Below, piece after piece: positions 1-57,159 of a stretch of 64,000 bases of DNA. Under the pieces are notes generated by a model, which was not told the DNA's origin, made no database searches, and saw nothing but the letters and a program-made list of their open reading frames with translations. Position 1 is the first letter of the stretch, and each line of letters begins with the position of its first letter. A program made the position numbers and the translations under genes. This DNA comes from a virus (Duplodnaviria > Heunggongvirae > Uroviricota > Caudoviricetes), in the IMG/VR virus record IMGVR_UViG_2703718819_000007; one strand, written 5' to 3'.

Positions 1-2
1 GG

Positions 3-1513
<1,511 letters not shown>

Positions 1514-1599
1514 ACGACAGCTGTTGTAGTTTCTGGTTTCTACTGAATTTAAATTGTGGGGATGATACTCACCTCACGAATTTCAGAAGGATATATGAA

Positions 1600-2112
1600 A
1601 TGGGGATAACATCGGGATGGGTAGGTTCTTCGGCTAAGAGCGAAACAGGTGAGCAATGGATGGGGGCTGCTGGCACTAAACTAGGATTGGATAAACCTTT
1701 TATGATGAGTCAAATGGTGGGGCGAGCTATGGGTTGTAAAATAGAAACCGCTTACTATAAATGGAACTCTTCGGATCAAGTTGAAAACTGGGGGGCGGTT
1801 GGAGCTGATTGGCCATTAGAAGAAAAAAGCAAAGGGACAATTACAAACGCTGAAAACTGTGGTTCTGGGAGACTGGTGGGGGCTGTCGTTACACTTTCTC
1901 ACTTTTTGACGAACTCTACACCGACAGCTGCTGTTTATTTATCCGGTGGTAAAGCAGGTAACATCACCGTAAACGTAGGTGGTGCTACACAAACCATGAT
2001 TTATCAGGGCGTTGTTAGTGGGTTCCAGTATTACTGGTCAGGTTCTGTTAGTTCCGCTTTCGTGGAGGCAATGAAAAAGACGGGAGTAACCCAGGATCTA
2101 AAAATTAGTTAA
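1600..2112 (+). CDS. Hypothetical phage protein (170 aa) downstream of the tail fibre
   Basis: ORF with GAAGGA RBS-like sequence upstream; no recognisable motif. Confidence 0.4.
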   Translation: MGITSGWVGSSAKSETGEQWMGAAGTKLGLDKPFMMSQMVGRAMGCKIETAYYKWNSSDQVENWGAVGADWPLEEKSKGTITNAENCGSGRLVGAVVTLSHFLTNSTPTAAVYLSGGKAGNITVNVGGATQTMIYQGVVSGFQYYWSGSVSSAFVEAMKKTGVTQDLKIS

Positions 2113-2279
2113 ATGGTAAATGAATAATTTTAAAAACTTCACGTTCTACATACCGGAGACGCCGGATATATAGGATATTGTTTTAAGTTGCCAGAGAAAT
2201 TTTTCCGGACGGATGCTGATAATAATGATGTAATTTTTCAAGATTTCTGGAAATCTGTATTCTGCACAGGCGCAATTGT

Positions 2280-3971: not shown

Positions 3972-5236
3972 CCAGAAAACCGTGGCGTGCGGGGAAGGAT
4001 TTATCCACAGTTGTGGAGAACATGGAAATTGGCACCGGGCAGCGTGGTGACGGACGCCACGCATTTGTGACCCGTGAGGAACTGGTTGGTCTTAAACTCG
4101 CCCGGCGTCGAACATCGGGTGGTGCCTCATATGCACTGAATCCGGGTATTGAGATTGACAGTACTTTAATGACTGTTGATTTTCCCACAAAACCGCTGAA
4201 TTTTAAGGCGACAGGAGGATTTGGCTCGGTTCTTCTTGAATGGGATATGCCTAATTATCGCGGACATTCACTGACTGAAATCTGGCGGGGTACGGAGGAT
4301 GACCTTGCTGATGCAGTGCTGGTTGCCACGACGCCGGGGCAGGTTTACGGCGATCCGGTTGACCCTGGCTGGTCGGGATTTTACTGGATACGTTTTGTTA
4401 ACGCGGCAGGAGTGAAAGGTCCATGGAATGCTGAAAAAGGCACTCAGGCACAAACACAGATCGGCGTGAAGGCCATCATTGACCAGATCCGCGATGAGGC
4501 TGCAAAGTCGCCGGTTGTGTCCGAGCTGCGTAAAGAAATAAAAAACGCGCAGGGGCAGGCTGTAAAGGATGCTGCAATTAAGACAACCGAAGTTGTGGGG
4601 ACTCTCAGGGAAGAAACGACAAGAACGATTGGTGGTATTGAAACCCGCATTAGCACACTGGATTCATCAACCAGTGAATCGCTTAATGAGGTCGACAAGC
4701 GCATCACTAAACTGGATAAAGAAGGCGGTGAGGCGTTTCTGGCAATGTGGTCAAAAAAAGCGGGAGTTGATGGTATCACTGCGGGGATCGGGATTGTCGC
4801 CGGAAAAGACAGTGAAGGTAGGCCTGTAAGTCAGGTTGCAATTTCTGCGTCGCAGTTGTTTGTCTTTGACCCGAACAACCCGGATAACACCGCCTATCCG
4901 TTTGCGGTATCAGGTGGCAAGGTTGTGATCCCGAAAGCGATGATTTATGACGCGGTGATTGAAACACTGGTGTCGCGGAAGGTTGTGGCGGATGAGGTAA
5001 AAGCCGGGGTAAGTATCACTTCGCCAGTTATCCGGAGTGCCGTTATTCAGAACGGAAACTTTCAGGTTGATTCTCAGGGTAACCTGAATATTGGAGGCCT
5101 TTTCAGTGTTACGTCACAAGGGCAACTGACAATTCGTTACTCTAATCAGAATGTAGGACTGGTGATCCGCAATGATAAAATTGAGGTTTATGATCAGAAT
5201 GGACGACTGGCTGTTCGCATAGGCAGATTACGCTGA
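3968..5236 (+). CDS. Hypothetical phage tail/host-recognition-associated protein (422 aa)
   Basis: Long ORF coupled to upstream gene; region resembling tail-tip protein segments (GFYWIRFVNAAGVKGPW). Confidence 0.45.
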   Translation: MTRKPWRAGKDLSTVVENMEIGTGQRGDGRHAFVTREELVGLKLARRRTSGGASYALNPGIEIDSTLMTVDFPTKPLNFKATGGFGSVLLEWDMPNYRGHSLTEIWRGTEDDLADAVLVATTPGQVYGDPVDPGWSGFYWIRFVNAAGVKGPWNAEKGTQAQTQIGVKAIIDQIRDEAAKSPVVSELRKEIKNAQGQAVKDAAIKTTEVVGTLREETTRTIGGIETRISTLDSSTSESLNEVDKRITKLDKEGGEAFLAMWSKKAGVDGITAGIGIVAGKDSEGRPVSQVAISASQLFVFDPNNPDNTAYPFAVSGGKVVIPKAMIYDAVIETLVSRKVVADEVKAGVSITSPVIRSAVIQNGNFQVDSQGNLNIGGLFSVTSQGQLTIRYSNQNVGLVIRNDKIEVYDQNGRLAVRIGRLR

Positions 5237-5250
5237 TCAGGAGGTGAGTA

Positions 5251-5529
5251 TTGGAATACGGTTTTGCCATTTATAACAGAAATAACGTTAATGTTACGGG
5301 CGTGCTGACTCCGGTATTTTTCCTGGACAGATTTACAGCGGAGTCTGGCTCAAAGACGTACACGAATAAACCCGACGGGAAATCATTGCAGGCTGTATGT
5401 TGTTTATTTCCCTGGAATAACGTATTTGCGGATCGGAAAGTACCGAAGATAACCATTAATGGCAATACGGTGACGTGGTCGAATCTTGAGCAGGGTATGG
5501 GATCTTATATTTATACATTCTGGGGATAA
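5251..5529 (+). CDS. Hypothetical protein (92 aa)
   Basis: ORF with GGAGG RBS upstream. Confidence 0.35.
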   Translation: MEYGFAIYNRNNVNVTGVLTPVFFLDRFTAESGSKTYTNKPDGKSLQAVCCLFPWNNVFADRKVPKITINGNTVTWSNLEQGMGSYIYTFWG

Positions 5530-5534
5530 GTGTC

Positions 5535-6152
5535 ATGTATGGTTTGAGCATTATGAAGCCGGATGGCAGCGTATGGATAAGTCCAGGTTTTACGCCGCAG
5601 TGTCTGATCAACAAAGGCACCATACCGGCGACTGAAAAGTCTTTTTTTAAAACATCAATCCCGTCAGGCAAAAGTTGTTTTTTCTTTATCAGAACAGAGA
5701 AGAAGGCCGATGTCATGTACACGCATGAACAGATTGATGGATATCATGCACTAAGGCTTCATGTAATTGTCAGGGGAACGAACCCTGGTGTTACGACGGT
5801 TTATGCTTTCGCGAATATGGTTACTCCACCTTCTGAGTATGGTATCGCCATGTATAACCCGGACGGTGAGATGATTTATCATGGCGAAATGATGCTGCTT
5901 GACGCGAAGTTAATACCTGTTGATATCAAATTTGAAAAGGACCTTGGATATCCATGCGCAATCATGCCTGCACTGGTCGGGTATTATAACTGGAAAAGAA
6001 CTCCTTATGATCGACCGATTTATACCACATCCACTGGTGCTACAGGAAATAAAATATATTCCTGTGAGCATTATTCCGGCGGTGCAACATGGGATATTCG
6101 AAAGCCGTATATAGATAAGGTCCTGGTTATTAATACATCAGTATATGATTAG
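5535..6152 (+). CDS. Hypothetical protein (205 aa)
   Basis: ORF immediately following previous gene. Confidence 0.4.
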   Translation: MYGLSIMKPDGSVWISPGFTPQCLINKGTIPATEKSFFKTSIPSGKSCFFFIRTEKKADVMYTHEQIDGYHALRLHVIVRGTNPGVTTVYAFANMVTPPSEYGIAMYNPDGEMIYHGEMMLLDAKLIPVDIKFEKDLGYPCAIMPALVGYYNWKRTPYDRPIYTTSTGATGNKIYSCEHYSGGATWDIRKPYIDKVLVINTSVYD

Positions 6153-6242
6153 TTGAAGCGAGTCTTTAATATTCATTTAAAATGTCTAAAAAGATGTATT
6201 ATTAAAAAGTTTAGCGTGTTATCTGAATACAGGATATCTTAA

Positions 6243-6977
6243 ATGAAGAGTATAGCAACACTGGTTGTGTGTGCAATCTCCGGGATTGCCTGTGTAAATT
6301 TATCTGCACATGCAGCAGAAGGAAACCATACAATTTCTCTGGGGTATGCGCACTTTCAGTTTCCGGGACTGAAGGATTTTGTAAAGGATGCGACTGCTCA
6401 TAACAGGGAGACTTTCAGTCATTTCGTCAACAGAAACTACTTTTCTTCATTGGGCGAATATACAGATGGTCGGGTCAGTGGATATGAAGGCAAGGATAAA
6501 AATCCACAGGGCATTAATATCAGGTATCGCTACGAGATAACGGATGATTTTGGCGTTATCACCTCTTTTACATGGACGCGTTCTCTCACTAACTCACAGA
6601 CATTTATTGATGTGCAGTCAGCCGATCATACCAGGAAGATTAAGAATCCGGCAGCTTCTGCCAGAACGGATATCAGGGCGAATTACTGGAGTCTGTTAGC
6701 GGGGCCTTCATGGCGGGTTAATCAGTACATGAGCTTATATGCGATGGCAGGGATGGGCGTTGCTAAAGTTAGCGCTGACCTGAAAATTAAGGACAATATT
6801 AACAGTAGTGGCGGATTTTCTGAAAGCAACAGCACGAAAAAAAACTCCCTTGCGTGGGCTGCAGGTGCACAGTTTAACCTGAATGAGAGTGTTACACTGG
6901 ATGTGGCTTACGAAGGTTCCGGCTCTGGCGACTGGCGCACGAGTGGAATTACTGCTGGCATTGGCCTGAAATTCTAA
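6243..6977 (+). CDS. lom: Lom/Ail/OmpX-family outer membrane beta-barrel protein with signal peptide
   Basis: N-terminal signal peptide, alternating beta-strand pattern, C-terminal ...GITAGIGLKF typical of Ail/Lom family. Confidence 0.85.
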   Translation: MKSIATLVVCAISGIACVNLSAHAAEGNHTISLGYAHFQFPGLKDFVKDATAHNRETFSHFVNRNYFSSLGEYTDGRVSGYEGKDKNPQGINIRYRYEITDDFGVITSFTWTRSLTNSQTFIDVQSADHTRKIKNPAASARTDIRANYWSLLAGPSWRVNQYMSLYAMAGMGVAKVSADLKIKDNINSSGGFSESNSTKKNSLAWAAGAQFNLNESVTLDVAYEGSGSGDWRTSGITAGIGLKF

Positions 6978-7001
6978 CCTGTATCCGGTAACCGTTTACT
7001 A

Positions 7002-7026
7002 CCCGCTGTGATGGCGGGTTTTTTAT
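7002..7026 (+). terminator. Rho-independent terminator after lom
   Basis: cccgc-tgtgatg-gcggg hairpin followed by T-run. Confidence 0.6.
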
Positions 7027-7428
7027 TGCCCGTACAGGGCAAAAACCGTAAATTATGCGTGGGTGCCTTTCGGCTGATGGCTGGAGGGTGAACCTGAAGG
7101 CCTGATGTGGAAAGGCCCCGAGTCAACTTAACGTTAACCCGAGGCCCTAACACTTCGTACCTTGACAAGTAGAAGGTTAGCGCCTCTCCACTCAGGAGGC
7201 AAGCGCTATGTCGCAAAAATCGCTTATCACCGTCACAATTTGTATGACGGTTATCTTCACTATCTGGATGTTGCACGGTTCGCTGTGTGAGTTCCGGCTG
7301 AATTTGTGGGGAGCGGAGTTTGCGGCGTTCTTACAGTGTAAGCAGTAGGAAAACCGCGACGGGGACGAAAGTCCCCGTCAACTGGTTGCTGAGGTTCAGC
7401 CGATATGGCACCCGTTTCAGGTGAGAGA

Positions 7429-7806
7429 ATGAACGATAAAATTCTCCGGTATATGCAGCGTGTGGTGAGAAATTCCCGCAACCCTGAATTTATGAATGAA
7501 GTTAAAGACGCCTGCCTTAAAAAGCAGGCGTTTTGTTTTGAGGCACCTGATGGCTTTCTGGTGCTGCGTTCTGTGCTCAGTGCTGATGGTATCCCTTATG
7601 TTCTGGTGTTGCTGGGCGTGTGTACGGGGAGTAACAGCGTTGAGCGTTATCTGCCGGAGGTGAAGACATTAACCCGTCTGGCTGGCGGACGTTGGGCTGA
7701 ATTTCATACGGCAAGGCGGGGATTTATCCGGCTGGGAAAACGTCTGGGCTTTGAGCGAATGCCGGATGATGAGGATGGCTTCATGGTGTTCAGGATAGCG
7801 GTCTGA
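7429..7806 (+). CDS. Hypothetical protein (~125 aa)
   Basis: ORF bounded by terminators at 7002-7026 and 7860-7882. Confidence 0.4.
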   Translation: MNDKILRYMQRVVRNSRNPEFMNEVKDACLKKQAFCFEAPDGFLVLRSVLSADGIPYVLVLLGVCTGSNSVERYLPEVKTLTRLAGGRWAEFHTARRGFIRLGKRLGFERMPDDEDGFMVFRIAV

Positions 7807-7859
7807 CTGCCACAGTTTTCATCATCGTGTTTAAACCAACATTGCAATTCACATTCTGA

Positions 7860-7882
7860 CCCTGCTCCGGCAGGGTTTTTTT
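7860..7882 (+). terminator. Rho-independent terminator
   Basis: ccctgc-tccg-gcaggg hairpin followed by 7 T. Confidence 0.65.
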
Positions 7883-7900
7883 ATTATCCAGGGGGCCATT

Positions 7901-8557
7901 ATGGGTGGAAGTAAAGGTGGTGGTGATACCAAAGTAAAACCAACAGCAGCGCAAATAGCACAGGAAGAAGTGGCCTGGAAAGGGTGGCAGGATTACAAAA
8001 ATATCCTCCGCCCGGCTGAAGATAACTTCATGGAAAAGGTCGATGACCTGAACAGTGAGCAGCAGTACGACAATATCGCTGGCACCACAAATCTGGGGTA
8101 TCAGAAACAGTTTGGCGAAGCACGGAAGGAGCTGGCGGGTAATCTTGCTCAGTCCGGTGTTGACCCGTCCAGTGGTCGCTTTAACGCGGTAATGAATGCG
8201 AACCAGAGTGATCAGGTAACCGGGCAGATTGACACAACCACACGGGGGCAGGTATCGCAGGCAGATAAGTATGTTGCCGGGCTACAGGATGTTGCAGCTC
8301 TCGGTTCAGGTCAGAAGGCGGATGCGTTACAGAGTTTTAACTCGCTGGCAGACAGCAGTCTGGCAAAAGCTAAATCGGACGCACAGGCTGCGTTTACGAA
8401 ACAGCAGGGGCGAGCCTCTCTTGTTGGCGCTGGTTTGGGTGCGGTAGGTGCATATGCGATGCATAAGGCTGGTGGTAGCGGAGGAAGTGGCGGTGCTAAA
8501 ACACCGGGCACCGGCGCTAATGCCATTCAGCATCAGGCTCAGAACTGGAGACTGTGA
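7901..8557 (+). CDS. Hypothetical virion-associated protein (218 aa), first gene of a coupled operon ending in the giant ORF
   Basis: AGGGGG RBS, stop/start overlap with next gene. Confidence 0.5.
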   Translation: MGGSKGGGDTKVKPTAAQIAQEEVAWKGWQDYKNILRPAEDNFMEKVDDLNSEQQYDNIAGTTNLGYQKQFGEARKELAGNLAQSGVDPSSGRFNAVMNANQSDQVTGQIDTTTRGQVSQADKYVAGLQDVAALGSGQKADALQSFNSLADSSLAKAKSDAQAAFTKQQGRASLVGAGLGAVGAYAMHKAGGSGGSGGAKTPGTGANAIQHQAQNWRL

Positions 8558-9006
8558 TTATGGAGTACGGTAAATACGAAACACTTGCGAGATACGGTTA
8601 TACCGGAGCTGCCCGTCCACAGGGTGACTGGCAGACGTCAGCAGCGCTGACACGCCAACAATACGACGACTGGCGAACCAGATATTTGCCCCGCGTGGCA
8701 AGGCTGGCTGACCTTGGCGAGAACAACAGCCTGATGAATGCACAGCTTGCCCGGGTGGGCGGCCTTGCCACTTCCAGTCTCCGTACAGCGCAGATGGCGC
8801 AGGATAACCAGATGGCGAGATACGGGGTAAGCCGCCCGGATAATCCCGACAGTAATACGCTGGGGTTACGTAATGCCCTGGCAATTGCTGGCGCGAAAAA
8901 TGGTATCCGTGAAGCCGAACAGGATCGCCAGATGAACATACTGACGGGGGCTTCTGCACCGGCAAGACAGAAACTGAGTGTTGGCGGACAACTGGTGGCA
9001 GCGTAA
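8554..9006 (+). CDS. Hypothetical protein (150 aa)
   Basis: ATGA-coupled to upstream ORF. Confidence 0.5.
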   Translation: MIMEYGKYETLARYGYTGAARPQGDWQTSAALTRQQYDDWRTRYLPRVARLADLGENNSLMNAQLARVGGLATSSLRTAQMAQDNQMARYGVSRPDNPDSNTLGLRNALAIAGAKNGIREAEQDRQMNILTGASAPARQKLSVGGQLVAA

Positions 9007-9015
9007 GGAGGAAAT

Positions 9016-9267
9016 ATGGGGTACGGCTTACTGGATATTGCGAATCAGTCACGGCGTGAGGCATTACAGGGAATAAGTGACGCAGACCGACGACGTGAAG
9101 AAATTGAGGCTGCGAACAAACAGATGGCGGCGCAACAGAAAGCGCAGAACAAGCAGAATATCGGTACGGGCATTGGTACGGGGGCGGCTATTGGCGCATC
9201 CGTTGGTGGTCCTGTTGGTGCTGTTGCTGGAGCAGTAATTGGCGGCATTGCTGGTTCTTTGTTTTAA
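9016..9267 (+). CDS. Small protein with C-terminal glycine-zipper/hydrophobic segment (83 aa)
   Basis: Strong AAGGAGG RBS; C-terminal GTGIGTGAAIGASVGGPVGAVAGAVIGGIAGSLF. Confidence 0.5.
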   Translation: MGYGLLDIANQSRREALQGISDADRRREEIEAANKQMAAQQKAQNKQNIGTGIGTGAAIGASVGGPVGAVAGAVIGGIAGSLF

Positions 9268-9277
9268 GGAGTGGTGA

Positions 9278-10543
9278 ATGAGCGGATTTGCACAGGGGTT
9301 ACTTGCCGGATTCAGCACGGTTGACCAGGCAATGACCCGTCGTAAGGAGCTTGGTCTGCGTGAAGCACAGCTTGCCCGGCAACAGAAAAATAACGAGCGC
9401 GATTTTGAGTTTGCGCAGTCTCAGTTTGAACATAATAAAAACGTTGATCAGCGGAACTTTGATTACAGAGCCAAAGTTGACGACCGTAATTATGCACTGA
9501 AGGAAAGGGAGTTTAACGCTAACCAGAATTACCGGAATGCGTCGCTGGGTATGGAGCAGCAGCGACTCCGGATGCAGAAATACAACCAGCGACGGCTTGA
9601 GTATAACGATATGCTGGCGCGCGATCAGCCTGTGATGGCGGCGCTTGGAAAGGCTGTGGATGCTGGCGATCGGGATGCAGCAATGCGTCTTTACGGCCAG
9701 TTGTCAGAGGGTAATCCGCTGAGGCTGATGGCGAATGATGGCTATGTAGCGAAAGCGGGTCAGGCCGTGAACAACCTGCAAAAAATCTTTGATGACAAGC
9801 CAGACAGGGCTATCGCTTCACTTAATACGCCGGAGAATCTTGATGTCCTTTCCGGGGTGTTTGGCCCGGAACTGCAACAGCGTATTGGCATGCCCGATTC
9901 AACCGGGAAAAAGACGATAAAAGAGGCCAGGATTGGCAGTATAGTACCGGCACAGCAGGAAGGGTACATACTTATCGGCCTTGATCTCACATACAGTGAT
10001 GGCTCTACAGCACATAAACCTGTAACAGAATACGGCAGTGCGCACCCTGATGATCAAACCGTGCTGGCGATACCCGTTGATAAGGCTATCGCTCAGGTCA
10101 GGGATCGCAGCAAATTTGCAGAGATATCGAAAAATTATGGTTATTTTATGCCGAAGCAGCAGGGACTTTCTCTGAAAGAGCTTCAGAAGGGGGCCAGCAA
10201 CGTCGCGGCGGACGCGATCAAGAATGGCGGTAATGCACAGGCTGCGGTGGATGAATATTATGCTGCGACTGGTTCACAACCGCATCAACAGAAAATTCAG
10301 CAACAAAAACTTCAGCAACAGGTTATCAACTGGGCGGGAGATGATCCTGATAAGCTGTCATTTGCCAGAAATGTAGCGGCCCGTCAGCCTGAAATGCTGG
10401 AGCCTCAGAATCAGAAATTGCTGGAGAACGGGTATGCGAATTTTCTCCGTATTCAAAAGGCCAGGGGGGAACAGGCCAGAGATGAAAGTGCTTCATCTGC
10501 ATCTCAGTTTATCCGTGGACTGAAACAGAATTACGCCCAGTAA
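9278..10543 (+). CDS. Hypothetical Q/N-rich protein with predicted coiled-coil character (421 aa)
   Basis: AAGGAG RBS; Q/N/R-rich sequence. Confidence 0.5.
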   Translation: MSGFAQGLLAGFSTVDQAMTRRKELGLREAQLARQQKNNERDFEFAQSQFEHNKNVDQRNFDYRAKVDDRNYALKEREFNANQNYRNASLGMEQQRLRMQKYNQRRLEYNDMLARDQPVMAALGKAVDAGDRDAAMRLYGQLSEGNPLRLMANDGYVAKAGQAVNNLQKIFDDKPDRAIASLNTPENLDVLSGVFGPELQQRIGMPDSTGKKTIKEARIGSIVPAQQEGYILIGLDLTYSDGSTAHKPVTEYGSAHPDDQTVLAIPVDKAIAQVRDRSKFAEISKNYGYFMPKQQGLSLKELQKGASNVAADAIKNGGNAQAAVDEYYAATGSQPHQQKIQQQKLQQQVINWAGDDPDKLSFARNVAARQPEMLEPQNQKLLENGYANFLRIQKARGEQARDESASSASQFIRGLKQNYAQ

Positions 10544-10575
10544 TTCACGATATTCCATTAATACCATTTCCTGAT

Positions 10576-10601
10576 GCCCGGCCATTGTGCCGGGTTTTTT
10601 T
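10576..10601 (+). terminator. Hairpin plus T-run immediately upstream of the giant ORF start
   Basis: cccggc-cattgt-gccggg followed by 7 T; implies the true start of the giant gene is the ATG at 10613. Confidence 0.55.
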
Positions 10602-10612
10602 ATGGAGTCTGT

Positions 10613-13600
10613 ATGGCCTATTCAGAGGAACAGCGTCCTGAGGCGCAACTCGGTAACCAGAATCGTAACAGCCTGAACATTCAGCAACCCGGCGAAACTG
10701 ACAGCTATGAAGCATTTTTCTCTGATCCGAATCGCTGGAAGGATAACAGTACGTCGTTCAGCCTGGGCGATGTATTGCCAACAATGGGTAAAGGTTTCGC
10801 CCAGTCCGTCCGGGGAACAGGGGAAATGGCCCGTGGACTCGGTGATGCGATGATTCAGAGCCCGGTAAAAACAGGGGCGCGTATTTTAAATGAGTTCAGC
10901 CGTATGGGGCTGCCGGGTGTCGCAACTGTGCAGGATATTTTTGCCGGTGGCAGCAGGGGGGCTGATGAGGTCATCGATACCCTGCCTGATGGCAAAAACG
11001 CGGTTACTGATACTGTCGGTAAAGGTCTGAAGGCAACCGGTAAGGCTGTCAGTGATGGTGCTGAAGCCACTGATGAATGGCTGACCGGTAAGATGTCGCC
11101 GGGTGCAGTTCGTGCGCTGAATACGCCGATGACCGAAGGCTATGATGATTCTGCGGTCTGGGTGGCGAAGGGTGTAAACCTGATTGGTGCGCTTGTACCT
11201 GATATGGTTGCTGGCGGTGTGGCTAAAAAGGTGGGTGATGTCACACTGCGAAAAATGCTGACCGCCGGGCTGGAGAAAAAATACATCGCGGCAGGGATGC
11301 AGCCGGAAAGAGCCACGGCACTGGCAGCAGAAGCTGTCGATAAAAAAATGCCGGATTTATTCCAGGCGGGCCTGATCACCCATTCCACAGCCAGTGCACA
11401 GGGGCAGAGTGCAATGGCGGCAGCAGATGCTGTTCTTAATGCGGATTACTCTGAGCTGGCGCAGTCACCGAAATTTCAGCAGACGTTTTTGTCCATTGAC
11501 GCCGACCCGCAGCACGCACAGCTTACTGATCGCCAGAAAATGGATCTGGCAAAAGAGCGTGTTGCCGATGAGGTGCGCGCGCAGCTGGCAACCGATCCTG
11601 AATTGCTGGCTGTGAATGCCATGGCGGCAAAACTGGGTGACGCACAACTGTTTAATCTGGTGACACGAGGCACAGCGAAGACCGTTAAAAGCGGCATTGT
11701 CAGAAATGCCACGGAACAGGGGGCGATTAATGCGGCGCAGGGCGGCTATTCACGCTATCAGGAAAACACGGCATTGCGTGAGACCGCCGGAATGGATGTG
11801 TCACCGTGGGAGGGCGTGGCTGACGCAACGATCGAAGGTGCAGCCTTTGGTGCTGCGATGGGGGCTCCATCCGGTGCGGTTGCCGGATATCGTGGCAGAC
11901 GTCAGGCCGCAGAAGAAGCAGCCATGCGTGATGCTGAAACCGTGCAGCAGGACGACGCAGCCCCGCAACCAGAATCTGTTGATCCGGTGGCGCAGCATCG
12001 TGAATCCATGCAGGGGATGAATCGCGAGCAGCTTCTGGAGCAGTATGCTGATGCGGATATGGCAACAGAGGGGGACGCATCCGCAGCTCATCGCCGGGAA
12101 GCTGCCAGCCAGTTGTTGAATGAACTGGACGAACAGGCGAAGCGACAGGCTGTGATGAATGAGCTGAAGGCGAAGCCGCGTTCTGAACTGCTTGAGGAAT
12201 ACCGCAGACTCAGCCAGAAAGAGGAGCGCACCGAGACTGAAGAACAACAGTTTCAGGCAATACGAGAAGTCATTCGCCCACAACAGGAAGTGACGCCGGA
12301 AGCACAGTCACAGCCTGAAAATGCGGAGGATGGTAACGGGAGCATTTACCCGACGGTGCGGTTCCGGGACCCGAATGAAGTCCGCATTGAAATTAACGGG
12401 AATGGTGCGTCCAGACCAGCGGAACGCATTGAAAAGGTGCGCCCGGACAACCGTTATTTCACGGATGAGAAAAGCGCCATGGGGAGTGATGTTTTCCGTA
12501 ATGCCGCCGCCACCGGCCTGAAACCGTCCGTAGTGAAGAAAGGCGAGACTCAATATGCTGTTGAAATGGATAATCCTGCGTTCTCTGAAGATGTGGCAAC
12601 GGAAACCATTAACACCCTGGCTGACGGAGAGCGTATTGCTGATGCTGACCCGATGGAGCAGCCCGCGTTCATGCGTGACCCACGATTCCGTGGTTTCACG
12701 GGGGATGATACGGAGGTACAGGCCCGCCTTGCCCGTGGCAACGTGCCGACGGCAGAGGAGCTTGTACGTTCACAGATGGCTGAAGGTGATGCCGGTCCGA
12801 CAGCACAGGAGTTAACTGAGCGTCCACGCCTGCCCGCTCCCGGCGATATTCATCCCGGACAGGGATATCCGTTACCGGGAGAGGTGGCGCGTACGCCGGA
12901 TGAGAATCAGGCAGGACGTGGTGGTCGTTTTACCACAACCGGTGAGGTTAAGGGCCAGAGTTTCCAGAAAGGACAAGCTCTGGCACCGGAAAACGCCGCT
13001 GGTCGCCAGGGGGAAACACTCGAGGGTGAAATGGTTCGTCGTGGTCTGCCGTCACCGGATGCGCAGAACGCGACAGCACCGGTACGTGAAGGGCTACCGG
13101 CTCCGGACATTACACACAATGTCCGTATGCCTCAGCCTGATCAGCTTCCCCGAACTGTTCGTAACTCATTGCCTGAGCTCGCACAGCAGGCAGAAGTACG
13201 TCGACAGGCCGGAGGAAATCGTGACATCCCGCAGCCTGAGACAATCGCACCTGAATCTGAAACAACAGTCGCTACTGACAGGGAAGCTACCGTGCGCGGA
13301 GGTGAAGTCAGGGGCAAAAAAATTGAAGACTTTGGTGAAGAAATTAAGGGCGCGGCAAAACACCGTTATGCACAGCTTGCTGAAACACTGGGTAAAACGC
13401 TGGAAGACAGGGATTATGTCACGCAACCGCTGAGCAAACTGTTCCCGAAACCGGACTACGCAAAACTGGCGAGCGAAGGGGCTGATGCTGACACCCTGGC
13501 AATGATAGCGCTGTATCGTAGCGATATTCCGGTGAAGACGAAACACAATACGGCAGGCTGGGGGGAGAGCGTAAAAAAAGTACGACACAGTGTATCGGAA

Positions 13601-16600
13601 ATGCTGAACGGAACGGTCAGCGCGAAACGCCTCGCAGAATGGATGGAAGGCAGAATGCCCTCCCGTTACGCGGACACCTGGCAACTGTTACGCACTCTGC
13701 CACCCTCACAGATGGACAAGGCTTCTGCTTATCGGGTGGTATCGGGTGTGTATCAGGCGGCAGGAGGGAAGCGTTACGATCCGCCACAGAAACTTTATTC
13801 ACTGCGCAATAAGGACAATAAGGGGAGTAACCTCTTTTTCTCGGAAAGCAGGGATGAATTACTGGCAAAGGCGAAAGTCTGGTTTGCAGAGCAGGAGGAA
13901 AAATCACAGGCGAAAGGTGATGAAAAAACAGCACCGTCTCCGGATGACAAAATCCGCTTTGACGTTTACCGGAATACCCGCAGTGGCGATATTTTTATCG
14001 CTTACGGTAAAAACAAAATGCGGGTGAGAGGTGGCTTTAAGTCAGCCAGTGATGCGCGTAAGTACATTGATTTACATCGTGATGAGCTTGTTCGTCATGT
14101 GAAGGAGATGCGGGAGATTTCGCGTGAGGAGCAGCGCAACGCCACCAACCGCGACCGTACCGGACCAGAACGCCGCAAGGGGGATGTTTCACCGGAGCAG
14201 TTCAGTGATGCGTTTGGTTTTCGTGGTGTGCAGTTTGGTAATTATGTGGAAAGTCCGCGTCGTCAGGCTGATTTGAACCGGGCTTATGACTCGCTGCATG
14301 ACCTGGCTGACGTGCTGAATGTACCGACAAAAGCGCTTTCTCTGAACGGTCGTCTTGGGCTTGCTTTTGGTGCCCGTGGTAAGGGTAAGGCGGCGGCACA
14401 CTATGAGTCAGGTGAGGTGGCAATCAACCTGACAAAAGGTAACGGACCGGGTGCGCTGGCGCACGAATGGTTCCATTCTCTGGATAATTATTTTGGTCGT
14501 TATGACGTTTCCAGTGACGGGAAAATTACGTCAGGTGGCGACTTTATGACGGAAGCACAGCGTGTCAGGCGCATATTTAAAGACGGCAGGTATGTTGATG
14601 CTGAATATCCGGTACGTCAGGAGGTTTACGACGCTTTTAAAGGTGTGATTCAGGCCATTAAAAACAGTGACATGCCGCGTCGTTCAGCGCTTCTTGATGA
14701 GGTGCGCTCAAAACCGTACTGGTCAACGGATGTTGAAATGGCGGCACGTGCCTTTGAGCGTTATGTTCAGGATAAGGCGCGTATGGCTGGCGTGGAGAAT
14801 GATTATCTGGTCAATATCCGTAAGGCACCTGAGCACAACACAGATAACACCTACGCTTATCCGACGAATGCGGAACTGGATGGCGGTATTCGTGAGGCAT
14901 TCGATCACCTGTTCCGCACCCTGAAAACCCGTGAGACGGACAAGGGCGTTGCGTTTTATTCCCGTAAGGGCATGACCCGCACACCTGAAGGTAATCTCAT
15001 TTCGGATGTTAACCGTAGTGCGGAAGCCAAAGGCAGCCCGGTCCCGCAGGTTGAAGCGGTTGCCCGTGGCGTGATGAGCGGCATTAAGGACAGTGACCTG
15101 ACGGTCCGTGTGGTGAAGTCACAGAAAGAGGCTGAAGCGCTGGCGGGTGAATCGTTCGACGGTTACGGCAGGGTGCACGCATTCTATCGTCCGGATAAAC
15201 GAGAAATTGTCCTGGTGGCGGATAACATCCCTGACGGGCAGACCGTACGCGAGAAGTTGCGTCACGAGATTATCCACCATGCCATGGAGCATGTTGTCAC
15301 GCCAGCGGAATATCAGACGATTATCAAAACCGTGCTGAAAACCCGCGACAGTGATAACGCCACCATCCGTGAAGCCTGGCGTAAGGTTGATGCGTCCTAT
15401 GGTAAGGAATCACCGGAAGTACAGGCGGGTGAATTTCTGGCACATATGGCGGAGAAACAGCCGAATAAATTCGTGGCGGCATGGGAGCGTGTTGTTGCCC
15501 TGGTCAAAGGGGTACTGCGTCGTACGGGGTTACTGAAGCCGACGGAACTGAACGATATCAGACTTGTTCGCGAGACCATCCGTACGTTAGGCCAGCGTGT
15601 GCGGGAAGGTTACACGCCGCGTGAGGATGGCGTGGGCGCATCGTCTCAGTACTCCCGTAGTGGTAAGCCTGATCCGTTCAAAGTGCCGGAAGGTGAGGGT
15701 GAACGTTATCGCGATGACCTTGCCAGAATGATGAAATCTCTGCGTACCACAGATTTAACGGTAAACATCGGGCGTACGCCGCCGGTATTGCGTCACCTTG
15801 GTGCACCGGATTTGCCGCTGGTTATTTCCCGCGATACTGTGCGGAAGGCCACCAATGGTGTGAAACATGTGGTGCCGATGGATGTTATCGAGAGACTACC
15901 GGAACTGATGCACGATCCGGATGCAATTTACCGCTCAGCGACAGAAAGAAATGCGGTTGTGATGCTGCTTGATGCCGTGGATAAAAATGGTGATCCGGTA
16001 GTGTCTGCGGTGCATATGAAGGCAACCCAAAAACTTCTGGAAGTTAACCGTATTGCTTCTGTTTACGGAACGGAAAACGGGAAAAAACTGAAGAGTATGG
16101 AAACGGCTGGCTTAACATTATACAGGAGAGAAAAACTAAACCCTGATGGTTCTCTGTACAGAGGGCTCCAATTGCCCAAAGATGAGCACTCCCGTCAGGG
16201 TTCTGCGGATAAAATACTCTATCCTGAAGATATTCGCAAGGGGCCGTATTACTCCCGTACCAGCAGTCTGACACCGGAAGAGACAATTGCATCGCGTTTT
16301 GTGCGCCAGATGCAGGATAAATTCCAGGTGCTGAAAGCTGTTCAGGAGAATATCCGTAAAACTGGTGGAAAAATAGACGACAGTAACAACGCTTATATGG
16401 CGGAAGAACTCTTCCACGGGAAGGCGGAAAACGACCTGAACGTGATGAAGGAGCGCTACGTTCAGCCACTGGCTAAATTACTGGCGGACTACAAAATTGC
16501 GCAGGCCGATCTGGATGAGTACCTCTACGCCCGTCACGCGCCGGAACGTAACGCGCATATCGCGAAAATCAACCCGAAAATGCCGGACGGCGGTTCGGGG

Positions 16601-18994
16601 ATGACCAACGCGGAGGCGGCGGAAATCATGCAGCGTGTACGTAACAGCGGCAAACAGGCACAGTATGACCGTCTGGCAGGGATTGTTGACGATATGCTGG
16701 CCCGTCGCCGTGAGCTTATCCGTGAGGCAGGACTGGAAGAGAGCGGCGTGGTGGATGCCTGGCAGAAAGCCTACCGTTACTACGTTCCCCTGAAAGGGCA
16801 GGATGTTGACGGTGTGGTGTCACTGCCACGTACAGGCAAGGGATTCACCATCGGCGGGCGTGAAAGTAAGCAGGCCATGGGGCGCGCATCCCGCGCACAG
16901 TCTCCTTCCACTCAGGCGATACAGGATTTGAGCGAATCACTGATCCGCAATCGCAAAAATGAAGTGGGTAACGCCTTCCTGAAACTGGTACAGGATAATC
17001 CCGACAAGGATTACTGGCAGGTATTCACCGATGACAGACCGGATACCATGCGGACGATTGCAGAGCGCAAGGACAAGGAAACTGGTGAAACCATTCGCGA
17101 AGTTGTCGAACGCCCTGTACCGATGGCAATGATGGCAGACCGGTACTTCACCACCAAAAAGAACGGCAAAACGTACTACATCAAACTCCATGATCCGCGC
17201 CTGATGCGTGCGATGAAGAATATGGGACCGGAAACCAGTAACGCCGTAATCCGCACGCTGGGGAAAGTTAACCGCTTCCTGGCAACGGTGAACACGTCGT
17301 ATAACCCGGAATTCCTGGTCAGTAACTTCATCCGTGACGTACAGACGGCGGTGATGAACCTGAAGGCGGAGCAGGGAAGGAGCGACGGCAAACTGAAAGG
17401 GCTGGATAACTTATCCGCACTGGCTGTGGTGAAAGACAGTCGGTCTGCCATGTCTGCCGTATACGCCAGTCTGCGTGGTAAAACCCTCACGGGCAACGGT
17501 GCGCAGTGGCAGAAGGTGTGGAAAGAGTTTGTTGAGGACGGAGGTAAAACCGGCTGGTTTAACATGGGTGACCTTGAAGGCCAGCAGAAGGAAATGGATC
17601 GCCTTGTATCGCTGGCGAAGGGAGGATGGAAAGGCCAGAGTATCGGTGCATGGAATTCGTTCCTTAACCTTGTCGAGGATGCCAACGGGGCGGTTGAAAA
17701 CGCTCTGCGTCTTTCTGCCTATAAACACGCCCGTGATGCCGGTTTGTCACGCCAGCAGGCGGCGTCTCTTGCCAAAAACATGACGGTGAACTTTAACCGT
17801 CGTGGTGAGCAGGGGGCGCTGATGAACTCGCTGTACATGTTCGCCAACGCCAGTATTCAGGGAACGGCAAATCTGGTGAGAACGCTCGGACATCTTAATG
17901 GTGAGGGACCTTTACTGGAGCGCCTTCGCTGGAAGAATCTGAATGTTCCGCAGAAAATCGCGCTTGCCGCTGTGGGAGCGGGTTATCTGCTTGGCTCGCT
18001 TAACCGCAGCGTGGCGGGTGAGGATGATGACGGGGTTAACTGGTATGACAAAGTACCGTCTCATGTGAAAGAGCGTAACCTCGTCATTATGAAATCGGTG
18101 TTCGGGGGCAAGGCCGGAGAGTACTGGAGTATTCCTCTGCCTTACGGGTACAACGTTTTCTTCCTGCTTGGTCACACAGCCGAAGGGGTGGCAGCGGGCG
18201 ACCTGACCGCTTCACGTGCTGCCGGTAATGTTGTTGGTGGTGTGCTTGGGGCATTCAGTCCTGTGGGCAGTGAAACGTCGGAAACACTGTCCGGGGCATT
18301 GCTGAAAAATGCAGCGCCGACCATTCTGCGTCCGTTTGCGAACCTTGCCATGAATGAAAACTTCATGGGGGCGCAGATTTACCAGGAGAACATGCCGTTT
18401 GGTACACCAAAACCTGACAGCCAGCTGGGAAGACGTTCAACGCCAGAAGCGTACAAGGCGTTTGCATCCTGGCTGAATGCGTTCTCAGGTGGCAGCCAGT
18501 ACCGTCCCGGCGCGGTGGATATCACACCGGAATCGCTGAAATTCTGGATTGACTATATCTCCGGAGGGACAGGGCGCTTCATTTCCAAAACCACGGATGC
18601 GGCGGTGAAATCGCTGAATGGTATTGATATACCGGAACAGCAGGTGCCCTTCCTGGGGAAAATTTCGGGGGAGGTGATGCCGTATGCAGACCAGCAGAAG
18701 ATGTACGACCGGATGACAGAGATTGCGCAGTATCACGCAGAGCTGAAGAGTCTGACCGGTGCAGAAAGAACGGCGTTCATTGACGAGAACAACGGAAAAT
18801 TGTCGATGAACGGGCTTATGCAGGATACCCGGAAGAGACTGAAGGATTTGCGTAAACAGCGTGATGCCATTTATGCCGACAGTTCTCTCAGTCTGGCGCA
18901 GCAGGCGGCGATAGTGAAATCGGTAGAGCGGGATATGAAGGTTGCCGTGGATCGCTTTAACCGCGAGTACAACAAAAAAGTGGGAGTGGATTAA
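10613..18994 (+). CDS. Giant 2793-aa phage protein with two HExxH (zincin-like) motifs; candidate multi-domain polyvalent virion/ejection protein
   Basis: Single uninterrupted ORF; GGAG RBS 5 nt upstream of ATG 10613; HEWFH and HEIIHH motifs. Confidence 0.8.
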   Translation: MAYSEEQRPEAQLGNQNRNSLNIQQPGETDSYEAFFSDPNRWKDNSTSFSLGDVLPTMGKGFAQSVRGTGEMARGLGDAMIQSPVKTGARILNEFSRMGLPGVATVQDIFAGGSRGADEVIDTLPDGKNAVTDTVGKGLKATGKAVSDGAEATDEWLTGKMSPGAVRALNTPMTEGYDDSAVWVAKGVNLIGALVPDMVAGGVAKKVGDVTLRKMLTAGLEKKYIAAGMQPERATALAAEAVDKKMPDLFQAGLITHSTASAQGQSAMAAADAVLNADYSELAQSPKFQQTFLSIDADPQHAQLTDRQKMDLAKERVADEVRAQLATDPELLAVNAMAAKLGDAQLFNLVTRGTAKTVKSGIVRNATEQGAINAAQGGYSRYQENTALRETAGMDVSPWEGVADATIEGAAFGAAMGAPSGAVAGYRGRRQAAEEAAMRDAETVQQDDAAPQPESVDPVAQHRESMQGMNREQLLEQYADADMATEGDASAAHRREAASQLLNELDEQAKRQAVMNELKAKPRSELLEEYRRLSQKEERTETEEQQFQAIREVIRPQQEVTPEAQSQPENAEDGNGSIYPTVRFRDPNEVRIEINGNGASRPAERIEKVRPDNRYFTDEKSAMGSDVFRNAAATGLKPSVVKKGETQYAVEMDNPAFSEDVATETINTLADGERIADADPMEQPAFMRDPRFRGFTGDDTEVQARLARGNVPTAEELVRSQMAEGDAGPTAQELTERPRLPAPGDIHPGQGYPLPGEVARTPDENQAGRGGRFTTTGEVKGQSFQKGQALAPENAAGRQGETLEGEMVRRGLPSPDAQNATAPVREGLPAPDITHNVRMPQPDQLPRTVRNSLPELAQQAEVRRQAGGNRDIPQPETIAPESETTVATDREATVRGGEVRGKKIEDFGEEIKGAAKHRYAQLAETLGKTLEDRDYVTQPLSKLFPKPDYAKLASEGADADTLAMIALYRSDIPVKTKHNTAGWGESVKKVRHSVSEMLNGTVSAKRLAEWMEGRMPSRYADTWQLLRTLPPSQMDKASAYRVVSGVYQAAGGKRYDPPQKLYSLRNKDNKGSNLFFSESRDELLAKAKVWFAEQEEKSQAKGDEKTAPSPDDKIRFDVYRNTRSGDIFIAYGKNKMRVRGGFKSASDARKYIDLHRDELVRHVKEMREISREEQRNATNRDRTGPERRKGDVSPEQFSDAFGFRGVQFGNYVESPRRQADLNRAYDSLHDLADVLNVPTKALSLNGRLGLAFGARGKGKAAAHYESGEVAINLTKGNGPGALAHEWFHSLDNYFGRYDVSSDGKITSGGDFMTEAQRVRRIFKDGRYVDAEYPVRQEVYDAFKGVIQAIKNSDMPRRSALLDEVRSKPYWSTDVEMAARAFERYVQDKARMAGVENDYLVNIRKAPEHNTDNTYAYPTNAELDGGIREAFDHLFRTLKTRETDKGVAFYSRKGMTRTPEGNLISDVNRSAEAKGSPVPQVEAVARGVMSGIKDSDLTVRVVKSQKEAEALAGESFDGYGRVHAFYRPDKREIVLVADNIPDGQTVREKLRHEIIHHAMEHVVTPAEYQTIIKTVLKTRDSDNATIREAWRKVDASYGKESPEVQAGEFLAHMAEKQPNKFVAAWERVVALVKGVLRRTGLLKPTELNDIRLVRETIRTLGQRVREGYTPREDGVGASSQYSRSGKPDPFKVPEGEGERYRDDLARMMKSLRTTDLTVNIGRTPPVLRHLGAPDLPLVISRDTVRKATNGVKHVVPMDVIERLPELMHDPDAIYRSATERNAVVMLLDAVDKNGDPVVSAVHMKATQKLLEVNRIASVYGTENGKKLKSMETAGLTLYRREKLNPDGSLYRGLQLPKDEHSRQGSADKILYPEDIRKGPYYSRTSSLTPEETIASRFVRQMQDKFQVLKAVQENIRKTGGKIDDSNNAYMAEELFHGKAENDLNVMKERYVQPLAKLLADYKIAQADLDEYLYARHAPERNAHIAKINPKMPDGGSGMTNAEAAEIMQRVRNSGKQAQYDRLAGIVDDMLARRRELIREAGLEESGVVDAWQKAYRYYVPLKGQDVDGVVSLPRTGKGFTIGGRESKQAMGRASRAQSPSTQAIQDLSESLIRNRKNEVGNAFLKLVQDNPDKDYWQVFTDDRPDTMRTIAERKDKETGETIREVVERPVPMAMMADRYFTTKKNGKTYYIKLHDPRLMRAMKNMGPETSNAVIRTLGKVNRFLATVNTSYNPEFLVSNFIRDVQTAVMNLKAEQGRSDGKLKGLDNLSALAVVKDSRSAMSAVYASLRGKTLTGNGAQWQKVWKEFVEDGGKTGWFNMGDLEGQQKEMDRLVSLAKGGWKGQSIGAWNSFLNLVEDANGAVENALRLSAYKHARDAGLSRQQAASLAKNMTVNFNRRGEQGALMNSLYMFANASIQGTANLVRTLGHLNGEGPLLERLRWKNLNVPQKIALAAVGAGYLLGSLNRSVAGEDDDGVNWYDKVPSHVKERNLVIMKSVFGGKAGEYWSIPLPYGYNVFFLLGHTAEGVAAGDLTASRAAGNVVGGVLGAFSPVGSETSETLSGALLKNAAPTILRPFANLAMNENFMGAQIYQENMPFGTPKPDSQLGRRSTPEAYKAFASWLNAFSGGSQYRPGAVDITPESLKFWIDYISGGTGRFISKTTDAAVKSLNGIDIPEQQVPFLGKISGEVMPYADQQKMYDRMTEIAQYHAELKSLTGAERTAFIDENNGKLSMNGLMQDTRKRLKDLRKQRDAIYADSSLSLAQQAAIVKSVERDMKVAVDRFNREYNKKVGVD

Positions 18995-53960: not shown

Positions 53961-54066
53961 ATGATTTTTGCTGAAGATGGCGACATGATGTTTGCATTTT
54001 TCAAAAAACATGGATAAGATTTTCTCAACGATGGGCTTTGTGTATCCGACGTTTAGAAAAAAGTAG

Positions 54067-54092
54067 AAAACCCGCTGATAAGCGGGTTTTTG
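54067..54092 (+). terminator. Hairpin terminator downstream of Q (tR'-like)
   Basis: cccgc-tgataa-gcggg followed by T-run. Confidence 0.55.
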
Positions 54093-54096
54093 TGCT

Positions 54097-54325
54097 TTAA
54101 ATGGGGCAATAGAGATATTGAATCTCATCCCGGGATAAACATTGGGAGTTGAAGGTCCACGCGAACCATTTATCCGGCAAAATTCCACGCGTAATCCTGT
54201 GGTAATTTCTTCTGCATCTCGAAGATTGAGAGCTGAAACGTGAAGCTGGGCATCGATACGCCATCGGATGGGAATATAAGACCTTTGCTGCTTTTGTAGT
54301 CAAAGTTTTTGACAATTCCTGTCAT
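54097..54325 (-). pseudogene. CspF/CspH-like cold-shock gene remnant, frameshifted
   Basis: Manual translation [16 protein letters not shown]... then out of frame; [17 protein letters not shown] found in a second frame (ORF 53799..54188). Confidence 0.4.
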
Positions 54326-55819: not shown

Positions 55820-55823
55820 TCCA

Positions 55824-56135: not shown

Positions 56136-57159
<1,024 letters not shown>

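Follow-up and report, generated by a model that had tools for sequence, protein, structure and literature searches.

What does a short-tailed phage obtain by devoting about 14% of a genome of the 60-kb class to one gene alone? The question is raised by the DNA analysed here, a stretch of 64,000 nucleotides from a virus of the class Caudoviricetes (IMG/VR record IMGVR_UViG_2703718819_000007; hereafter the window), in which a single plus-strand open reading frame (ORF) at positions 10613-18994 encodes a cysteine-free protein of 2,793 residues and ~308 kDa. Our answer, to which we assign a probability of roughly 70%, is that the product is a giant internal virion protein, carried inside the phage head and delivered to the host by ejection, in which a conserved frame is combined with delivered cargo. 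The gene, its size, its essentiality, its association with the virion and its domain families have already been published for phages carrying Shiga toxin (Stx) genes. The present analysis adds the assignment of both of its HExxH motifs to zincin clades, the removal of two labels (ATPase, and metallopeptidase for the MuF-C domain), the frame-plus-cargo architecture and the avoidance of cysteine.

Judged by its sequence, the ORF is the known 2,793-residue giant virion protein of the short-tailed Stx phages (Sepvirinae), the orthologue of Sp5 ORF80/ECs1242, 933W p72 and phi24B gp47. Megablast recovered the gene at full length, with 90-99.9% identity, from 186 phage records, which without exception belong to Stx or Stx-like phages infecting E. 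coli and Shigella, and tblastn agreed; Shigella phage 75/02 Stx is closest (99.9%), and VT2-Sakai and 933W stand at 97.3%. The proteins are 97.4-97.5% identical to those of 933W and VT2-Sakai and 99.9% identical to that of 75/02 Stx; the genes agree in product length (2,793 residues), in genome position and in the intergenic sequence in front of them, and only point differences separate them. An earlier reading of the letters alone (the sequence-only reading) had described a single 8.4-kb, 2793-residue ORF, which we confirm at 10613-18994 on the plus strand, and its tentative suggestion that short-tailed Stx phages carry comparable giant ORFs proved correct, since the 186 records include 933W, VT2-Sakai/Sp5 and phi24B-type phages. 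PHROG 616 matches the protein end to end and is annotated as 'unknown function'. The gene is the last of the late structural block, 3' of the tail-fibre genes, of Lom-like and Bor-like morons and of a gene for a 421-residue protein.

The genetics of this gene were established in Sp5 by Mondal et al. (2016; PMC5155283), who deleted ORF80/ECs1242 and described its product as unusually large, with 2,793 residues. Excision was normal in the mutant, DNase-resistant DNA reached the wild-type level and the heads looked normal; no plaques and no lysogens were formed, and the anti-tail-fibre antibody did not bind (PMC5155283). Deletion of ORF79, the gene of the 421-residue protein, gave the same phenotype, and the authors concluded on a role of ORF80 in tail formation, mentioning a match to COG1483 (AAA+) (PMC5155283). 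Since ORF80 is essential for infectious particles, the giant protein has to be more than an accessory anti-defence factor.

The virion association comes from phi24B. A preprint of April 2026 (bioRxiv 10.64898/2026.04.10.717836) detected gp47 in purified virions by liquid chromatography-tandem mass spectrometry, noted its LPD5, LPD1, LPD38 and MuF-C domains, found it invisible in cryo-electron microscopy and negative stain, and proposed an encapsidated ejection protein; the virion packaging suggested by the sequence-only reading is thereby demonstrated for this orthologue. With 10,962 spectral matches, gp47 was second only to the capsid protein; it gave 746 matches in the unfractionated sample, against 101 for the 724-residue portal, and was concentrated in four gel slices above the portal peak (bioRxiv 10.64898/2026.04.10.717836). 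The proteome supplement gives per-slice counts per protein only. Among the peptides listed, those of gp47 map from residues 19-41 to residues 2778-2789 (numbering of the 2,793-residue protein), and this span, together with the high gel slices, indicates that nearly the whole chain is in the particle, mostly in very large forms. If the spectral matches are normalised to chain length and then to 12 portals, the particle would hold roughly 20 copies, a crude value that is uncertain by at least twofold. For orthologues 96-98% identical to ours, it is established that purified virions contain the protein, that the ordered density of capsid and tail lacks it, and that infectious particles require it while DNA packaging is normal. 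The preprint gives the size of gp47 once as 2,811 residues (the stop-to-stop ORF) and once as '>3,000', and, in structure, places Ralstonia phage GP4 nearest to the phi24B virion (bioRxiv 10.64898/2026.04.10.717836). Literature searches returned nothing relevant on a virion proteome of 933W.

The domain content of the protein is that of the polyvalent proteins, a class introduced by Iyer et al. (2017; PMC5512222), who in the same work defined the LPD, MuF-C/PBECR and zincin peptidase (MPTase) domains. Four Pfam domains scored above their gathering thresholds: LPD5 at residues 1051-1200 (E 1.2e-44), LPD1 at 1361-1440 (E 1.1e-23), MuF_C at 1750-1837 (E 1.6e-17) and LPD38 at 2476-2681 (E 4e-48). 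With the second zincin added, the protein carries well over the two effector or LPD domains that characterise a polyvalent protein, and it is encoded among late structural genes. The sequence-only reading had proposed a large multi-domain polyvalent protein with HEWFH and HEIIHH zincin-like motifs and long low-complexity acidic, Q/R-rich linkers. The proposal holds in each part: the Pfam matches belong to the families of PMC5512222, the two motifs (residues 1284 and 1551) are conserved and of zincin peptidase type, and the linkers are real, at residues ~430-900. A further suggestion of that reading, a role in countering host defence, is a conjecture for this protein, in which PADLOC found nothing. 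A plain structural protein, which that reading had named as the finding that would count against it, is not what we see, as enzymatic-type domains are present.

From the N-terminus, the protein begins with an Ala/Gly-rich module (residues 1-440, core ~170-440; 10613-11932), which ends in a glycine-zipper-like stretch at residues 406-433, although the glycine-zipper matches in Pfam are weak (E 0.09-0.12), and which is 29% identical to residues 126-372 of the giant of Vibrio phage D56. The acidic Q/P/R-rich low-complexity region that comes next (residues ~441-900; 11933-13312), indel-rich and variable between relatives, is probably disordered: the hydrophobic fraction over residues ~430-900 is 0.16-0.23, with 86 D/E, 37 Q, 38 P and a net charge of -29. 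LPD5 (PF18799; 13763-14212), called 'potentially enzymatic' by Iyer et al. (PMC5512222), lies within a divergence hot spot described below.

Both HExxH motifs are, from their conservation and context, genuine zincin signatures, and the domains that hold them are predicted peptidases. Composition alone would give 0.036 such motifs, two or more occurred in only 9 of 20,000 shuffles, and both are kept in relatives of 32-85% identity. The first domain (residues 1182-1440; 14156-14932) carries HEWFHSLD at residues 1284-1291 (14462-14485) and is of the CLCA_X type. The NCBIfam model NF041907 (CLCA_X) spans residues 1182-1437 in one piece (profile positions 3-245 of 250, E 5.9e-44), and HEWFH and LPD1, the latter being the C-terminal part, therefore form one zincin domain of ~250 residues. 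Its score, 150.4 bits, is below the curated cut-off of 260 bits; we regard the domain as homologous to CLCA_X, and by the NCBI rule it is not a member. The pattern 'AHYEPG...INLTK..GSLAHEWxHALDNYF' is invariant in relatives of 32-85% identity, and the domain fits the phage-type clade of Iyer et al., with a His ending strand 2 and an Asp three residues past HExxH (PMC5512222). The strands and helix around residues 1248-1297 in the AlphaFold2 (AF2) model also match the zincin pattern. CLCA-like metalloproteases of phages and plasmids were described by Lenart et al. (2013; PMC3650047); the HExxH...D motif of that family is kept in the Stx giant, in which the domain is embedded in a much larger chain, whereas CLCA_X stands alone.

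The second zincin (residues 1495-1670; 15095-15622) lies outside Pfam. Its HEIIHH occupies residues 1551-1556 (15263-15280), with Glu1607 as the predicted third metal ligand. H1551, E1552, H1555, E1607, A1610 and G1639 do not vary when the domain is aligned with that of diverged relatives, among them the Vibrio D56, Bacillus Dartukuta and Burkholderia BcepMigl giants. The AF2 model places strands at residues 1497-1501, 1523-1526 and 1531-1535, a helix at 1542-1556 holding the motif and a helix at 1601-1614 holding E1607, which corresponds to the MPTase core of a three-stranded sheet, an HExxH helix and a later helix with a conserved Glu. In most relatives the motif reads HExxxH(H), and the Stx/Salmonella clade has lost one residue; HEIIHH therefore satisfies both the HExxH and the HExxxH spacings. 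Peptidase_M76 gave a weak match (E 0.11).

The MuF_C/PBECR domain (PF18819; residues 1750-1837; 15860-16123) scored 63.9 bits against a cut-off of 27.6, over profile positions 8-95 of 103. MuF-C/PBECR domains are predicted RNases of the barnase-EndoU-colicin E5/D-RelE fold (PMC5512222), and by family assignment this one is a predicted metal-independent RNase and not a metallopeptidase, contrary to the phi24B preprint. That preprint calls MuF-C a 'metallopeptidase domain' and bases an idea of peptidoglycan degradation on it; the zincin motifs are in fact at residues 1284 and 1551. Foldseek comparison of MuF_C with RelE/HigB toxins was non-significant (TM-score 0.34-0.47, E > 1).

The chain closes with a mostly helical C-terminal module (residues 1886-2793; 16268-18991), which includes LPD38 (residues 2476-2681; 18038-18655) and many invariant polar residues. 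In relatives of 32-77% identity we counted ~35 invariant and ~70 nearly invariant positions, often polar, as in HAPERN, RD.QTA, ENA.RLSAY, NFNR.GE and GEDDDG, and this conservation suggests an active site, or else a channel or interface surface. The module matched no known fold or family and has no solved structural counterpart. Against the Protein Data Bank (PDB), phmmer with the whole protein found nothing, alignment profiles of the C-terminal module and zincin 2 found low-complexity or coiled-coil noise only, and Foldseek with a 980-residue AF2 model (residues 900-1879), a poor query given its several domains and flexible linkers, returned nothing at E <= 0.001, so that the assignments of LPD5 and both zincins draw no support from fold comparison.

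Two labels attached to this protein were considered and rejected. The AAA+ ATPase (COG1483) mentioned by Mondal et al. finds no counterpart here: the 2,793 residues contain no Walker A motif ([AG]xxxxGK[ST]), none of the four GK[ST] sites having the upstream Gly/Ala, and match no Pfam or NCBIfam ATPase family. The 'DarB-like antirestriction' label (PHROG 10089) rests on a match to residues 2351-2681 only, that is the LPD38 region, and no methylase or helicase is found by Pfam.

The architecture becomes clear when distant relatives are compared. By tblastn, residues ~1886-2791 are shared with the giants of ~60-kb podophages of Vibrio, Ralstonia, Burkholderia, Ruegeria and Bacillus, and a HMMER search with residues 1-450 returned 99 relatives among 1.84 billion representatives. 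In the full-length relatives, which are proteins of 1.9-4.7 thousand residues, the N-terminal module always stands at the N-terminus. Among 58 giants sharing this module and mutually less than 50% identical, zincin 2 is present in all 58 and is followed in every one by 900-1,150 further residues; the C-terminal profile matches 29 of the 58, and Pfam places LPD38 in 9 and LPD39 in 5 of 14 giants at the C-terminal end. The centres of the tested giants vary, with ParB, methylase/helicase, LPD5/LPD1 or MuF_C. Upstream of the shared C-terminal part, the BcepMigl giant (4,658 residues) carries SLT, methylase, helicase and PBECR1 domains, and the Dartukuta giant (4,203 residues) ParB, pyrophosphatase, LPD5/LPD1, LPD23, acetyltransferase and ADP-ribosyltransferase domains. 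The same pattern of fixed ends and variable centre is seen in the giants of Vibrio D56, Bacillus Dartukuta and Burkholderia BcepMigl, whose genes are each the last structural gene, after a gene for a protein of 420-540 residues. A fixed frame, consisting of the N-terminal module, the HExxxH zincin and the ~900-residue C-terminal module, thus surrounds a variable centre, and in the Stx phages MuF-C is inserted between zincin 2 and the C-terminal module.

The frame (N-terminal module, zincin 2 and C-terminal module) is 94-100% identical among Stx-phage lineages. In an Oslovirus Stx2a phage, residues 801-1200 (13013-14212, around LPD5) are 60-72% identical, the linker at residues 1801-1900 is also variable (73-83%), and most of the remaining protein is more than 94% identical (94-100%, with exceptions of 73-87%). 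The divergence at residues 801-1200 looks like mosaic exchange or diversifying selection acting on one cargo domain. A Salmonella-type relative of 2,931 residues, 67% identical over the N-terminal 450 residues, has an insertion of ~274 residues between the zincins, at residues ~1440-1500, and a Salmonella diarizonae homologue lists a phage lysozyme (PF00959) together with LPD1 and MuF_C. From this lysozyme and this insertion it follows that cargo is gained and lost even among close relatives. A protein-homologue search with residues 1441-1740 gave almost only near-identical fragments, the database apparently storing the family as pieces of at most ~1,700 residues.

A further common property of these proteins is the lack of cysteine. 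There is none in the 2,793 residues of the giant protein, and none in the 3,665 residues encoded by the five consecutive plus-strand genes at 7901-18994. The other plus-strand late ORFs of at least 150 codons upstream (window positions 1-10560) have 19 in 2,605 residues, a rate at which the chance of finding none in 2,793 would be ~10^-9. Cysteine is equally absent from the D56, Dartukuta and BcepMigl giants, and 5 occur among the 175,059 residues of the 58 distant giants; 234 database fragments have 54 in 253,709. N4 virion RNA polymerase (3,500 residues) and T7 gp15 and gp16 are likewise free of cysteine, and T7 gp14 has one, while the other T7 virion proteins checked have 2-5, with the exception of the scaffold (none). 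We interpret cysteine avoidance as a probable sign that thiols are selected against where a protein has to pass, unfolded, through the tail and into the oxidising periplasm, and the absence of cysteine may serve as a hallmark by which ejected phage proteins are recognised from the sequence. No mention of it was found in the available text of Iyer et al., in a 2022 review of ejection proteins or by a full-text literature search.

Among known systems, the virion RNA polymerase of N4 and DEV (gp50/gp71) would be the closest functional analogue. It is likewise a giant (3,400-3,500 residues) of a T=9 podophage, is free of cysteine, and is known to be packed in the head and ejected. In layout it resembles the Stx giant, with an N-terminal region, a cargo enzyme, a zincin (HELVH at residue 2228, a weak match to the zincin-2 profile) and a C-terminal region of more than 1,100 residues; in DEV, the C-terminal half of the giant binds a neighbouring periplasmic tunnel protein of ~520 residues (PMC11445570). 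The two differ in that detectable homology is confined to the zincin (the C-terminal profile gave E > 0.007 and negative bit scores, and hhalign a probability of 0.2%), in their cargo, which is an RNA polymerase in N4 as against LPD5, a zincin and a predicted RNase in the Stx giant, and in copy number, with ~4 in N4 and a rough ~20, uncertain by at least twofold, for phi24B gp47. T7 gp14-gp15-gp16 offer another parallel, being an operon of internal virion proteins with the largest last, ejected unfolded and refolding into a trans-envelope channel. Of the P1 DarB/Bcep22-type proteins, the 4,658-residue 'DarB-like antirestriction' protein of BcepMigl has a C-terminal module in common with the Stx giant, LPD38 included (27% identity over ~890 residues); the Stx giant differs in that the N6-adenine methylase and superfamily 2 (SF2) helicase domains, on which DarB function rests, are absent from it by Pfam. 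The polyvalent proteins of Iyer et al. resemble it as multidomain late products with LPD5, LPD1, MuF-C/PBECR, LPD38 and both zincin variants (His/Asp HExxH and HExxxH), whereas the available text of that work does not describe a three-part frame that travels together, the avoidance of cysteine or this Stx-phage protein.

Putting these lines together, we propose the following course of events. The giant gene, which closes the morphogenetic operon, would be expressed late, with Q-modified RNA polymerase passing the terminator in front of it, and the T=9 head would take up several full-length copies of the giant along with the 421-residue protein of the gene upstream. Upon release of the tail needle, it would leave through the portal and the tail channel, largely unfolded. 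The chassis of N-terminal module, HExxxH zincin and ~900-residue C-terminal module would serve packaging, exit and the extension of the short tail across the envelope. The lineage-specific central domains (LPD5, the CLCA_X-type zincin and the PBECR/MuF-C predicted RNase) would enter with the DNA as cargo and, within minutes of the start of infection, act on nucleic acids or proteins of the host, and one or both zincins may cleave the polyprotein into working pieces. In this scheme the ejection, the formation of a conduit, the self-processing and any anti-defence activity are what we infer, and the domain content, the conserved motifs, the chassis-plus-cargo arrangement, the absence of an ATPase motif and the avoidance of cysteine were observed in the present analysis.

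Other readings of the same facts have to be weighed. The protein could be an ejection protein for envelope penetration only, forming or lengthening a trans-periplasmic conduit and digesting the cell wall or envelope proteins with its metallopeptidase(s), with no cytoplasmic effector or anti-defence role, much as the phi24B preprint proposes (bioRxiv 10.64898/2026.04.10.717836). Wall-degrading domains do occur in relatives (SLT at the N-terminus of BcepMigl, PF00959 in Salmonella diarizonae, matches named LT_GEWL in BFVD), and among characterised zincins those closest to CLCA_X are secreted proteases (PMC3650047). The Stx giant itself, however, has neither a lysozyme nor an SLT domain in Pfam, and the MuF-C on which the preprint relied as a 'metallopeptidase' is, according to Pfam and Iyer et al., a PBECR predicted RNase, for which the envelope offers no substrate. 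The cargo of the relatives, which comprises DNA methylases, helicases, ParB nucleases and ADP-ribosyltransferases, would be sensible in the cytoplasm only. Known peptidoglycan endopeptidases, moreover, are mostly of the LAS/M23 type and not HExxH+E gluzincins. We consider a role confined to the envelope unlikely, though not far-fetched.

A factor for tail assembly, either an energy-using ATPase or a tail scaffold and not an internal ejected protein, was the conclusion drawn from Sp5 (Mondal et al. 2016), where the deletion heads are filled with DNA and do not bind the tail-fibre antibody and where the COG1483 match was reported (PMC5155283). We hold it to be improbable, as Walker A and any Pfam or NCBIfam ATPase domain are missing and as the orthologue is abundant in virions yet absent from the well-resolved tail, all proteins of which are assigned to other genes; the tailless phenotype may be indirect, if internal proteins are needed for the portal to reach its tail-accepting state. 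It is hardly credible that the gene is a moron for lysogenic conversion, a toxin-like product expressed from the prophage against competitors or the animal host and without a role in the virion. The terminator that separates it from the preceding gene, a CLCA-like zincin with eukaryotic relatives (PMC3650047) and true morons among the late-region neighbours (Lom, Bor-like) would suit such a gene; nevertheless, it is essential for plaques and lysogenisation, its product is present in virions, its position is conserved in lytic and temperate podophages of unrelated hosts, and neither a promoter-like site 3' of the terminator nor a signal peptide-like N-terminus is found.

Several observations also weigh against the giant being an ejected internal protein that carries cargo, as we prefer. 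Exit from the capsid, entry into the cell, cleavage and enzymatic activity are all steps that we infer, and the idea that ejected proteins are marked by a lack of cysteine generalises from few cases. No strong transmembrane segment is predicted (top 19-residue Kyte-Doolittle score 1.38). The C-terminal module has no detectable similarity in sequence or fold to T7 gp15/gp16 or to the C-terminus of N4 virion RNA polymerase, so that homology to a known ejection protein is lacking, and PADLOC and PDB sequence searches with the giant protein gave no match. Mutants of P22 in its ejection proteins are not known to show a tailless-type phenotype of the kind reported for ORF80. The Sp5 deletion heads, without tail-fibre antibody binding, were read by their authors as defective in tail assembly (PMC5155283). 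Finally, extensive processing inside the virion is unlikely, since the gel species are mostly very large, though limited processing would be compatible with the phi24B gel data.

If the preferred reading of an ejected frame with cargo is extended beyond the Stx phages, a more general picture can be sketched, one that we put forward tentatively and would not rely on. The frame would be an uncharacterised and widespread delivery vehicle of T=9 podophages with genomes of ~60 kb, found in Sepvirinae, in the Ralstonia phages QkW1, YL2, Eline, Claudette and UAM5, in Bcep22-like phages and in Vibrio and Bacillus phages, into which arbitrary enzymes are slotted for injection; the absence of cysteine would be a general hallmark of ejected proteins, and the Stx cargo would act early and could influence which E. 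coli or Shigella strains toxin phages are able to lysogenise. Through short-tailed Stx phages, Shiga toxin genes pass among E. coli and Shigella, and the giant gene studied here is 99.9% identical to that of a Shigella sonnei Stx phage. If the central domains are injected effectors, they would be candidates for determinants of host range and of the establishment of lysogeny by toxin-converting phages, and the conserved frame could be a natural vehicle for protein delivery.

As regards the reality of the gene, the plus-strand ORF runs from a first ATG at 10574 to the TAA stop at 18992-18994 (2806 residues from that ATG), and a stop-free run of 2806 codons has a chance of ~10^-56 at the local base composition. 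The ORF is not a sequencing artefact, because it is unbroken and full-length in all 186 of the 186 matching phage records; the sequencing error and the several genes that the sequence-only reading had kept in mind are thus not borne out, there being no frameshift artefact. The ATG at 10613-10615 is the better start, because a Shine-Dalgarno sequence (GGAG, 10604-10607, plus strand) sits 5 nucleotides upstream of it, and because the ATG at 10574 has no such sequence, lies at the foot of a hairpin and would add MPGHCAGFFYGVC, with two cysteines, to an otherwise cysteine-free protein. RefSeq entries disagree on this point, the 933W orthologue being started at the upstream ATG (2,806 residues) and that of 75/02 Stx at the downstream one (2,793 residues). 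No peptide from the N-terminal extension is among the phi24B peptides listed.

The hairpin just mentioned resembles an intrinsic terminator. At 10576-10601 (plus strand), between the ORF79-like gene and the giant gene, GCCCGGC / CATTGT / GCCGGGT is followed by seven T residues, giving a stem of 7 bp with 6 GC pairs, a loop of 6 nucleotides (hairpin 10576-10595) and a U7 tract that ends 11 nucleotides before the start of the giant gene. As in a Rho-independent terminator, the GC-rich stem-loop stands directly 5' of the U-tract, and its folding energy is -15.4 kcal/mol (z = -2.8 against shuffles). The terminator that had been noticed in front of the gene is therefore real as a sequence feature, and the 101 bases at 10530-10630, which run from the last part of the upstream gene through the spacer into the first giant codons, are 100% identical in 933W and 75/02 Stx. 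No promoter-like site was found between the terminator and the giant start codon. In the Q-antiterminated late operon of lambdoid phages RNA polymerase reads through terminators, and by analogy this one would be read through as well.

The 421-residue, cysteine-free product of the gene at 9278-10543 (plus strand) is the orthologue of Sp5 ORF79/ECs1241 and phi24B gp48, and falls in phrog_601, whose function is not annotated. In phi24B virions gp48 gave 1,634 spectral matches (bioRxiv 10.64898/2026.04.10.717836). The gene just 5' of the giant in Vibrio D56 encodes a homologue of it (E 1e-13), and BLASTP against the upstream protein of BcepMigl was not significant. Directly upstream, at 7901-9267 (plus strand), three small late genes encode cysteine-free proteins of 218, 150 and 83 residues, which by size and gene order would correspond to phi24B gp51, gp50 and an 86-residue ORF, all detected in virions (bioRxiv 10.64898/2026.04.10.717836).

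From ~22.5-23.9 kb on, the window (~22500-43000) matches E. coli chromosomes at 96.5-97.8% identity, with genes for site-specific integrases, ynfF/ynfE-type selenate/dimethyl sulfoxide reductases and rspA, and with IS66-family copies in some genomes, and the end of the prophage with its attachment site should lie near 22-24 kb. Among 5,426 E. coli genomes only 1 covers at least 80% of this part, a result in keeping with a Shigella origin. Further downstream, positions 54001-60000 have a G+C content of 0.38-0.42, compared with ~0.50 elsewhere, which suggests another horizontally acquired segment, unrelated to the giant gene.

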